From the NCBI RefSeq assembly GCF_003334355.1, contig NZ_QOWP01000002.1: a stretch of 64,000 nt of DNA, one strand, 5' to 3'. The DNA comes from Escherichia coli (GTDB taxonomy: Bacteria; Pseudomonadota; Gammaproteobacteria; Enterobacterales; Enterobacteriaceae). Position numbers: made by a program. Of the stretch, positions 35,101 to 38,100 are shown in pieces; positions within the stretch are counted from its first letter, which is position 1; every line of letters starts with the position of its first letter.

Positions 35101-38100
35101 GTGAGCGTTGGTCAGATTGCCGTTGTGGGCAAGCGTAATGCCATACGGGGAGTTAACGTAAAACGGCTGCGCTTCAGAGGCGCTGGAGCTGCCAGCCGTG
35201 GGGTAACGCACATGACCAATGCCCATATTGCCCTGCAAACGCTGCATATGGCGAGCTTCAAATACATCGCTCACCAGCCCGTTCGCTTTACGCAAACGGA
35301 AGCAGTTATTGGCATCTATGGTGATGATGCCGGCGGCATCCTGACCGCGATGCTGAAGCACCGTTAAGGCATCATAAATCGACTGGTTAACCGGCATAAC
35401 ACCGGCGATACCGACAATACCGCACATACGTCTTTTTCCTCGTTAAGCCACATCTCAGAGCACTTACGCTCTGGGCAAGAAACTTGACGAGCTTTGCAGA
35501 TAATCAAAAAACCATCTGATGATAAAACTGAATTGCGGGATCAGCTGTGATTTGCTCCAGTCTTCGCTTTTCGACACCCCGGTAAAGGAGTCGAGAAAGA
35601 AGAGAATGGCAGCAACAATCAACACACCGCGCAACGCACCGAAACAGACGCCCAGCACCCGATCGGTGCCTGACAACCCCGTTTTCTCCACCAACTGGCC
35701 TATCACGAAGTTCACGATAGCACCAACGATCAGGGTAGCGATAAACAGTACCGCGATGGCAATCCCATTTCGAACCAGTTCGTCTTCAAAGCCCGTAAAC
35801 CAGACTGACAGGTAAGTGTAGTAATGACTGGCAACAAAGAAAGCACAACCCCATGTCACCAGCGATAACGCTTCACGAACAAAGCCGCGGATCAGGCTAA
35901 CCAGAGAGGAAAAAGCAATCACCGCGATTATGGCGTAATCAATCCAGACCATATGTGTCCCACGATTTTACGCCCTGTCATCCTGTTCGGGGCGCATTCT
36001 AACAGAAAAAGAAAACGTTTGCGTAGGGATTTCCTTCCCGCGCATCAATAAAAATGGCGCTGAAAAAATATTCAACGCCATCGACTTTTTATGCCTTTGC
36101 GGCATCGGGCAATGCGTGTCGGATGCGGCGTAAACGCCTTATCCGACCTACGGTTCTACCCCTGCGTAGGCCTGATAAGACGCGCCAGCGTCGCATCAGG
36201 CAAGACCGTATTAATTCGGCGTATAGCCCATTACCACGCCACTTAAGCCAGAAAGTTGCTTCAACTCACCCAGCGAACCTTTCAGCTTATCTTTCGAGGC
36301 ATCCGGCCCAACCAGAATACGGGTAATTTTACCCTGCACTGGCGTGGATGGCGACGTATAAACCCGATAACCGGCACCGCGCAGCTTACCGACAATCTCA
36401 TTCACTTTATCGGCATTTTTCAGCGCACCCAGTTGCACAACATAGGCTTTACCCGTCGGTGCAGCTTTTTCTTCCACGACCGGCTTCGGTTCTGGCTTCG
36501 GCGCAGGTGGTGCTTCAACCTTTGGTTTAGGCGGCTCCACCGGTTTCGGCTTCGGTGGGGCGACCGGTGCAGGTTCCGGTTCAAACTCGGTGTTATTGGC
36601 TGCAATAGTGGCCGGATCGAGCGACGGTGCTGCGGCATCACCTGCCCGCACCTCTTCCGCTGCGCCTTCCGGCGGCTGCGTCGGTAACGCCTGGGTGGCG
36701 GCTGGCATCATATCAGGCTCATCACGATCGCCCGCTTTCGGCACCAGCGGGATAGCCGCGAACTCATCCTGATAATGTTTTTTCTGCCCGTCCAGCAGCC
36801 CTGGAAGTACAATCACCCCCAGCGCCACCAGCACGATCGTGCCCACTAACCGATTCTGAAACTTACTTGCCACCGCTTCTCCTCGCGTCAATCACTTCCA
36901 TGACATGTGCGACCGTGTGGAAAGAACCACACACCAGCACGGTGTCTTCCGCTTTAGCGTCCGCCATTGCGGCATCCCATGCCTGCGCAACGCTATCAAA
37001 TGATTTGCCGTTACCCAAATGCTCAAGCAGTTGTTCTGCCGTGGCACCGCGCGGCCCTTCCAGTGGCGCACAATACCAGTCATCAACCACGCTTTTCAAC
37101 CAGGCCAGAGTTCCGGCAATATCTTTATCATGTAGCATACCGATAACCGCCAGCACGCGCCCGTTTTTCGGTAGCGCTTTCATACGCCCGGTGAGATATT
37201 CCGCCGCATGTGGATTATGCGCGACATCAAAAATAACGCGTGGCGACTCGCTCACAATCTGGAAACGTCCCGGCAAAATTGCGCTGGCAATCCCGTCGCG
37301 AATGGCATTTTCACTGACTTCCAGCCCGCTGGCACGCAGTGCCGCCAGCGCTGTTGCGGCATTCGGTTGCGGGACAAGCGGCAACGGCAGATTTTCCAGC
37401 GTGCCGTGAGCATCGCTAAACGCCCAGTCATGATCGGTGACGGAATAGTTCCACTCAACGCCCCGACGTTGTAACAGTGCACCTTTTTCCTGCGCCACAT
37501 CAGCAATGGTAGAAGGCATTTCCGGCTCACCGACAATTGCCGGTTTTTCGCTGCGGAAGATGCCTGCTTTCTCGCGACCAATACTTTCGCGATCTGGACC
37601 CAGCCAGTCGGTATGATCCAGCGCAATACTGGTTACTACCGCGACATCGGCGTCGACAATATTGGTTGCGTCCAGACGACCGCCCAGCCCTACTTCCAGA
37701 ATCACCACGTCAAGTTGTGCCTGCTTGAACAGCCACAACGCCGACAGCGTACCGTACTCGAAATAGGTCAGGGAAATATCACCGCGTGCCGATTCAATCT
37801 CCGCAAAAGAGGCGGTGTGGGCCGATTCCGGCAATTCCTGGCCCTGCACACGTACGCGCTCGGTATAACGCACCAGATGAGGCGAACTGTAGACGCCCAC
37901 TTTGTACCCTGCCGCCATCAGAATCGACTCCAGCGTACGGCAGGTGGTGCCTTTGCCATTCGTACCCGCAACGGTAAACACAAATGGCGCTGGTTTCAGG
38001 ACGCCAAGACGCGCCGCGACCAGGCTCACGCGCTCAAGGCCGAGATCGATAGTTTTACTGTGCAGGTTTTCCAGATAAGAAAGCCACGAAGCCAGAGGCG

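Follow-up and report, generated by a model that had tools for sequence, protein, structure and literature searches.

The folC/dedD junction

We analysed the boundary between folC and dedD in a 64,000-nucleotide (nt) stretch of the Escherichia coli chromosome (assembly GCF_003334355.1, contig NZ_QOWP01000002.1), referred to here as the window, which spans nuoK to fadJ. A sequence-only reading of this DNA had proposed that dedD starts at a GTG at position 36873, inside the 3' end of folC, with an 11-nt overlap at 36863-36873. Over its full length the window shares 99.97% identity with strain PSS-12 (17 mismatches, 1 gap), and over most of its length 99.2% with K-12 strain MG1655; the 3.9-kb stretch around the junction has matches in all 5,426 complete E. 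coli genomes. Start coordinates were obtained by mapping the PSS-12 annotation from the Prokaryotic Genome Annotation Pipeline (PGAP) and the curated MG1655 annotation (NC_000913.3) onto the window. After mapping, the folC and dedD boundaries coincided in MG1655 (b2314/b2315) and in two other strains annotated by PGAP. The accessions are b2315 and WP_000584546.1 for folC, again with identical coordinates in MG1655 and PGAP, and b2314, NP_416817.2 (both MG1655) and WP_000146992.1 (PGAP) for dedD. Strain UTME-8 carries an IS621 (IS110 family) insertion that splits its best match to window positions 35400-39300 in two. The features at the junction are as follows.

36863..38131, minus strand: folC coding sequence, 422 amino acids (aa), ATG start, TAA stop at 36865..36863; from the list of open reading frames (ORFs) and the MG1655 and PGAP annotations
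36211..36873, minus strand: dedD coding sequence, 220 aa, GTG start, TAA stop; from annotation and peptides
36863..36873, minus strand: folC/dedD overlap of 11 nt, GTGGCAAGTAA, covering dedD codons 1-3 and two bases of codon 4
36871..36873, minus strand: dedD GTG initiation codon; from sequence, annotation, conservation and peptides
36879..36883, minus strand: Shine-Dalgarno (SD) sequence AGGAG for dedD, with a 5-nt spacer to the GTG
36889..36894, minus strand: in the dedD frame, TGA (36894..36892) followed by TTG (36891..36889), the naive longest-ORF start
36053..36082, minus strand: terminator-like hairpin and T-run 3' of dedD, from a consensus scan only; the folC-dedD transcript probably ends here

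On the minus strand, folC ends in ...GAC GCG AGG AGA AGC GGT GGC AAG TAA, and dedD, one base out of the folC register, begins GTG GCA AGT AAG TTT CAG AAT CGG. The folC part of the overlap consists of the last 2 nt of the G420 codon, G421, K422 and the stop, and this TAA is formed by dedD codons 3-4 (AGT AAG), 8 nt past the GTG. The AGGAG preceding dedD coincides with two rare arginine codons of folC, AGG (36883..36881) and AGA (36880..36878). The longest ORF for dedD runs from TTG 36891 and encodes 226 aa, 6 codons beyond the annotated 220-aa protein. The junction is that of the E. coli K-12 folC-dedD pair (b2315/b2314; NC_000913.3, UniProt P09549): its sequence, the GTG, the 220-aa DedD and the 11-nt overlap show no difference from K-12, although the window comes from another strain.

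The identity of the two products is clear from annotation and domain content. The upstream gene is annotated as folC, and its homologues in the same position carry PF08245 (Mur_ligase_M) and PF02875 (Mur_ligase_C); PF05036 (SPOR) is present on all listed cluster representatives of DedD, which are 74-100% identical to the query. A hydrophobic stretch, LVGTIVLVALGVIVLPGLL, occupies DedD residues 9-27, and a construct of residues 28-220 was described as being without the single transmembrane (TM) region (PMC7642682). In E. coli, Salmonella and Citrobacter, DedD homologues are 192 to 242 aa long; indels in the Pro/Lys/Glu-rich linker that joins the TM region to the SPOR domain seem to account for the variation.

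Initiation at the GTG and dual coding in the overlap

The position of the dedD start was examined by conservation. The folC locus was fetched from 80 Enterobacteriaceae species, with FolC identities of 80-99%, and 79 loci could be scored. All 79 have a GTG aligned with the E. coli dedD GTG and the same 11-nt overlap with the folC stop. Most of these species, on the other hand, have TAG or TGG where E. coli has the upstream TTG at 36891, which therefore cannot be a conserved dedD start. From the GTG onward, dedD codons 2-9 (ASKFQNRL) differ across the loci by near-exclusively synonymous changes (GCA, GCG or GCC for Ala, AAG or AAA for Lys, CAG or CAA for Gln, AAT or AAC for Asn, CGN for Arg, and TTA, CTG, TTG or CTT for Leu), which shows that this stretch is translated in the dedD frame.

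The folC frame gave a complementary picture. In a codon alignment of 81 folC sequences, we tested the 107 fourfold-degenerate sites at which the amino acid is invariant. Only one of these (1/107), codon 421 inside the overlap, never changes at its third base; the remaining 106 do, and their mean entropy is 1.37 bits. The third base of codon 420, a T that is also the middle base of the GTG, is likewise invariant, as is that of codon 421, in 81/81 sequences. The overlap is thus under purifying selection, with a dual-coding constraint on both genes.

Constraint is also visible just upstream of the GTG. Arginine codons within the last six folC codons are AGR (AGA or AGG) in 84/84 cases, whereas AGR makes up 2.6% of the arginine codons in the remainder of the gene, and a GGAG core precedes the dedD GTG in 77/81 sequences. 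The rare AGR codons are kept at the folC end because they spell the dedD ribosome-binding site (RBS). The non-AUG start of dedD is served by an SD sequence that lies at a suitable distance, is conserved, and has been probed by recoding. The folC AGG AGA (nt 1249 and 1252) could not be recoded to CGU CGU (Napolitano et al., bioRxiv 10.1101/069385; PNAS 2016), a change calculated to lower dedD RBS strength by 99%, whereas CGG CGA, which preserves RBS strength, was tolerated (bioRxiv 10.1101/069385). Changing the final codons of a gene "synonymously" can therefore do harm, since the folC AGG AGA doubles as the dedD RBS. The pairs secE/nusG and dnaT/dnaC are of the same kind: the downstream SD is built from AGR codons that close an essential upstream gene (Napolitano et al., 2016), and CGU recoding fails there unless RBS strength is kept (bioRxiv 10.1101/069385). 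The folC/dedD pair differs in having two adjacent AGR codons and a downstream gene that is formally non-essential.

Published initiation data agree with the GTG start. The sequence-only reading had named retapamulin-based mapping of initiation sites and N-terminal proteomics as the way to check its proposal, and results of both types exist. Table S1 of the TRAINSPOTTER N-terminomics study (NAR 2026; PMC13245402) lists the DedD peptides MASKFQNR (1-8) and ASKFQNR (2-8), assigns the start to the GTG at NC_000913:2431682-2431684, and names "Ribo-RET, INRI" and "REPARATION" as further support for it. The peptide that begins with methionine, reported for the codon at 36873, marks dedD as a GUG-initiated gene. 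We found no evidence in this analysis that contradicts the GTG start. The proposed start and 11-nt overlap are thus borne out by the sequence, annotation, the 79 loci and the peptides, and so is the warning that longest-ORF calls misassign N-termini: the real dedD start lies 6 codons inside the ORF that opens at TTG 36891.

The N-terminal TM region and adjacent residues were reported to be essential for DedD function (PMC7642682), which fits the strong conservation of the N-terminus. Napolitano et al. were unable to remove the 29 nt of dedD immediately 3' of the overlap that the Keio deletion leaves in place, and judged them essential in their strain (bioRxiv 10.1101/069385). This stretch corresponds to window positions ~36834-36862 on the minus strand.

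The start of dedD inside folC is already known, is correctly annotated, and is ordinary for a bacterial operon, and our results leave the current understanding of the two genes unchanged. The junction is a clean and well-documented example of how longest-ORF calling misplaces N-termini. The comparative data add the small point that the overlap is fixed across Enterobacterales, with synonymous sites frozen by dual coding.

Origin of the overlap and its relation to folC translation

A homology search with DedD gave only close relatives among the best 120 matches, and for a deeper comparison 50%-identity cluster representatives were searched and seven encoding contigs were inspected. Among these representatives, the DedD N-terminus M-[AS]-x-[KQ]-F-Q-N-R-L-V-G-T is kept down to ~33% identity. 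All four loci at 50-57% DedD identity (L090-L093) have the same 11-nt overlap, three with a GTG and one with an ATG start, and in each the folC TAA is made by dedD codons 3-4, AGT AAR. The three loci at 33-40% identity have no overlap, with spacers of +63, +3 and +9 nt, and the gene order folC-dedD-cvpA-purF is kept. In these three, the FolC tail is shorter, DedD has "SQ" or "TP" in place of "SK", and dedD still starts with GTG or TTG. The FolC tail sequence is highly variable.

Because the relatives without overlap have a shorter FolC tail and "ASQF" rather than "ASKF" in DedD, we infer that the overlap arose once, in an ancestor of the Enterobacterales, by loss of an earlier folC stop and read-on into dedD. 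The non-AUG start of dedD is probably older than the overlap. The idea that the GTG is forced solely by the folC glycine codon GGT was dropped, since the non-overlapping relatives also use GTG or TTG; in addition, one overlapping relative has ATG together with Asp in FolC.

Overall, the best explanation of the data is that dedD is translated from GTG 36873..36871 by ribosomes that are placed there by the AGGAG inside folC, and we consider this very probable. The AGGAG, within the AGG AGA codons of the FolC C-terminal tail, positions ribosomes on the GTG 5 nt further on, and folC, read in the other frame, runs 8 nt beyond it to the TAA that dedD supplies. The data establish the start position, the actual use of the GTG, the functional weight of the SD-forming codons and the selection on the overlap. 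Ribosomes that have just finished translating folC may account for some of the initiation at dedD. A ribosome terminating at this TAA covers the dedD initiation region, making reinitiation physically plausible, and the stop and start overlap in two co-directional genes, both on the minus strand, as expected for a coupled pair. Translational coupling of folC and dedD, which the sequence-only reading had proposed, is plausible. At a distance of -11 nt, reinitiation would probably add only a share to SD-dependent de novo initiation; we estimate that the dedD SD itself directs most initiation, ribosomes leaving folC contributing a part at most.

The pair resembles canonical coupled pairs (ATGA at -4, TGATG or TAATG at -1; trpB-trpA) in being co-directional, with the downstream start at or before the upstream stop and the SD within the upstream gene. 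Overlaps of the canonical -4/-1 type occur in the window at nuoK/J, nuoH/G, nuoF/E, hisM/Q and usg/truA. In contrast, the folC/dedD overlap is 11 nt long and of frame 3n+2 rather than 3n+1, a rarer class for which weaker coupling is reported (PMC12548453).

Several points weigh against this explanation, mostly against its coupling part. According to a review, coupling is most efficient from -4 to +3 nt, falls with longer overlap and is absent at -25 nt (PMC12548453), and the present overlap exceeds the -4 nt beyond which efficiency reportedly falls. Folding of 161 nt around the junction gave no RBS-sequestering structure (z = -1.2), which argues against a type of coupling in which an occluded RBS is unfolded. 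The marked dependence on the SD is equally compatible with de novo initiation and with reinitiation. The proposed stop-loss origin, for its part, draws on only seven distant loci. No experiment linking dedD to folC translation was found in the published literature that we searched.

The alternative that survives best is that the overlap is a frozen accident without a regulatory role: after losing its own stop, folC runs on to the first one it meets in the 5' region of dedD, and initiation of dedD is exclusively de novo, directed by its SD. The distant relatives with separate genes (+3 to +63 nt apart), their shorter FolC tails and GTG or TTG starts, the variability of the FolC tail and the lack of a sequestering fold all suit this view. 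However, a ribosome that terminates 8 nt past the GTG must contact the initiation region, so that some effect, positive or negative, is likely, and the present data do not separate a pure accident from partial coupling. We give it a chance somewhat short of even.

Strict coupling, in which ribosomes ending at TAA 36865 slide back 8 nt and reinitiate, so that the overlap fixes the FolC:DedD ratio, is unlikely. The exact conservation of the overlap across Enterobacterales-level divergence and the persistence of folC-dedD adjacency where the genes do not overlap speak in its favor, and coupling is well documented for overlapping pairs (PMC12548453). Yet the same source reports the drop in efficiency with longer overlaps, a strong SD of shown importance also fits independent initiation, and the conservation of the 11 nt is already accounted for by dual coding constraints. 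FolC and DedD are also not known to be subunits of one complex.

Also unlikely is a promoter inside folC that would give a separate dedD transcript and independent expression. A consensus scan located one sigma-70-like match within folC, at 37099..37070, ~200 nt upstream of the GTG, but the scan is at chance level, with three promoter-like matches in the region where 2.3 are expected.

Because the two genes overlap, there is no room for a terminator between them. Terminator-like hairpins flank the pair at 38192..38166 and 36082..36053, in a consensus scan whose count of such sites is not above shuffle expectation. The first of these lies in the 69-nt accD-folC spacer, where a 12-bp GC-rich hairpin with a T-rich tail (38166-38192, minus strand) is found ~35 nt before the folC ATG. 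The folC-dedD pair may be transcribed by read-through from accD or from a promoter inside accD. The folC SD itself is weak. The dedD-cvpA spacer (258 nt) contains two units resembling repetitive extragenic palindromic (REP) elements, gcctgatgcgacgctggcgcgtcttatcaggcctac and gtaggtcggataaggcgtttacgccgcatccgac, at window positions 36100-36205 on the minus strand, followed by the hairpin and T-run.

A dedD start at TTG 36891, giving a 226-aa protein and a 29-nt overlap, can be set aside almost entirely: it is the first potential start codon behind the in-frame TGA and has a weak GGAAG 3 nt upstream, but besides its loss to TAG or TGG in most species, the strong conserved SD lies downstream of it, the detected DedD peptides do not begin there, and no annotation checked (MG1655, PGAP) uses it.

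Finally, the overlap and the conserved non-AUG start could serve to tie DedD synthesis to FolC translation, linking one-carbon metabolism to cell constriction, an idea that we regard as very improbable. If it were true, DedD, an activator of septal peptidoglycan synthesis, would be tied to the essential folate enzyme FolC, and the failure to delete the 29 nt would point to an essential cis element and not to the DedD protein.

Other gene starts in the window

For the remaining genes, longest-ORF starts were compared with annotated starts for the 61 coding sequences that could be mapped. The genes other than dedD that the sequence-only reading had listed as having GTG or TTG starts or over-extended ORFs are as follows; plus signs give the extension of the longest ORF beyond the annotated start.

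17275..17277, minus strand: hxpA (yfbT) GTG start; longest ORF +6 aa; GAGGAGG 5 nt upstream; MG1655 and PGAP agree
17780..17782, minus strand: yfbU ATG start; longest ORF from GTG, +6; peptide MEMTNAQR and Ribo-RET/INRI support in the TRAINSPOTTER data (PMC13245402)
22270..22272, plus strand: yfcC ATG start; longest ORF from GTG, +7; peptide MSAITESKPTRR and INRI support in the same source (PMC13245402)
39113..39115, minus strand: accD ATG start; longest ORF +28 codons, from 39199
46981..46983, plus strand: mnmC GTG start; longest ORF from TTG, +20; N-terminal peptide of residues 1-22 at the GTG (PMC13245402)
53655..53657, minus strand: prmB GTG start; GGAGG 5 nt upstream; MG1655 and PGAP agree
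52688..52693, minus strand: aroC tandem GTGATG start; annotated ATG at 52690..52688, GTG at 52693..52691; longest ORF +1

Including dedD, all eight genes listed have either a GTG start or an over-extended longest ORF, as had been claimed, but none has an annotated TTG start. TTG is the annotated start of 0/61 genes in the window and appears only as a longest-ORF artefact, for dedD and mnmC. The listed genes other than dedD are unremarkable: an in-frame start codon happens to lie between the preceding stop and the real start.

The accD ATG is kept in 78/78 loci, and the extension upstream of it ranges from 0 to 66 aa; in 11 species a stop cuts it off within 5 codons. For prmB, the longest ORF begins at ATG 53990, adds 111 aa and runs antisense into the divergent smrB. 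The GAGGAGG of hxpA sits between the two candidate starts, ATG 17295 and GTG 17277. The former would overlap the yfbU stop by 8 nt (17288-17295), whereas the latter leaves a 10-nt spacer that contains the GAGGAGG. At the hxpA/yfbU boundary, too, whether the genes overlap depends on which start is used. In the portion of the TRAINSPOTTER table examined (PMC13245402), N-terminal peptides were not found for hxpA, accD or prmB, and the hxpA and prmB starts are probable from SD position and concordant annotation.

The case of aroC is different. Tables S1 and S2 of the same study (PMC13245402) report N-terminal peptides from both the GTG and the ATG, which suggests dual initiation one codon apart. 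Describing the longer aroC frame as over-extended is therefore only partly right: the ATG peptides agree with that description, but the peptide from the longer GTG start is of the kind that had been named as evidence against it.

Genes outside the earlier list showed similar features. The longest ORF exceeds the annotated start by +2 in nuoG and +1 in yfcE, and yfbS, pta, hisM and pdxB have GTG starts without over-extension. The annotations differ for two minus-strand genes, yfcE (GTG 24977, 184 aa in MG1655 vs ATG 24974, 183 aa in PGAP) and nuoC (ATG 9033, 596 aa in MG1655 vs ATG 9045, 600 aa in PGAP). GTG starts account for 8/61 genes (13%) in the window; their share in E. coli K-12 is roughly 14%. 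Overlaps occur in 10 of the 48 same-strand neighbour pairs, six by 4 nt, three by 1 nt and one by 11 nt. Both figures are close to normal, so that such features are typical for E. coli rather than exceptional.

The yfc fimbrial operon region (yfcO to yfcV; 54446-64000) is only 84-91% identical to other strains (MG1655, strain 300709), compared with >99% in the flanks. Within it, yfcU is intact in the window and a pseudogene in MG1655.

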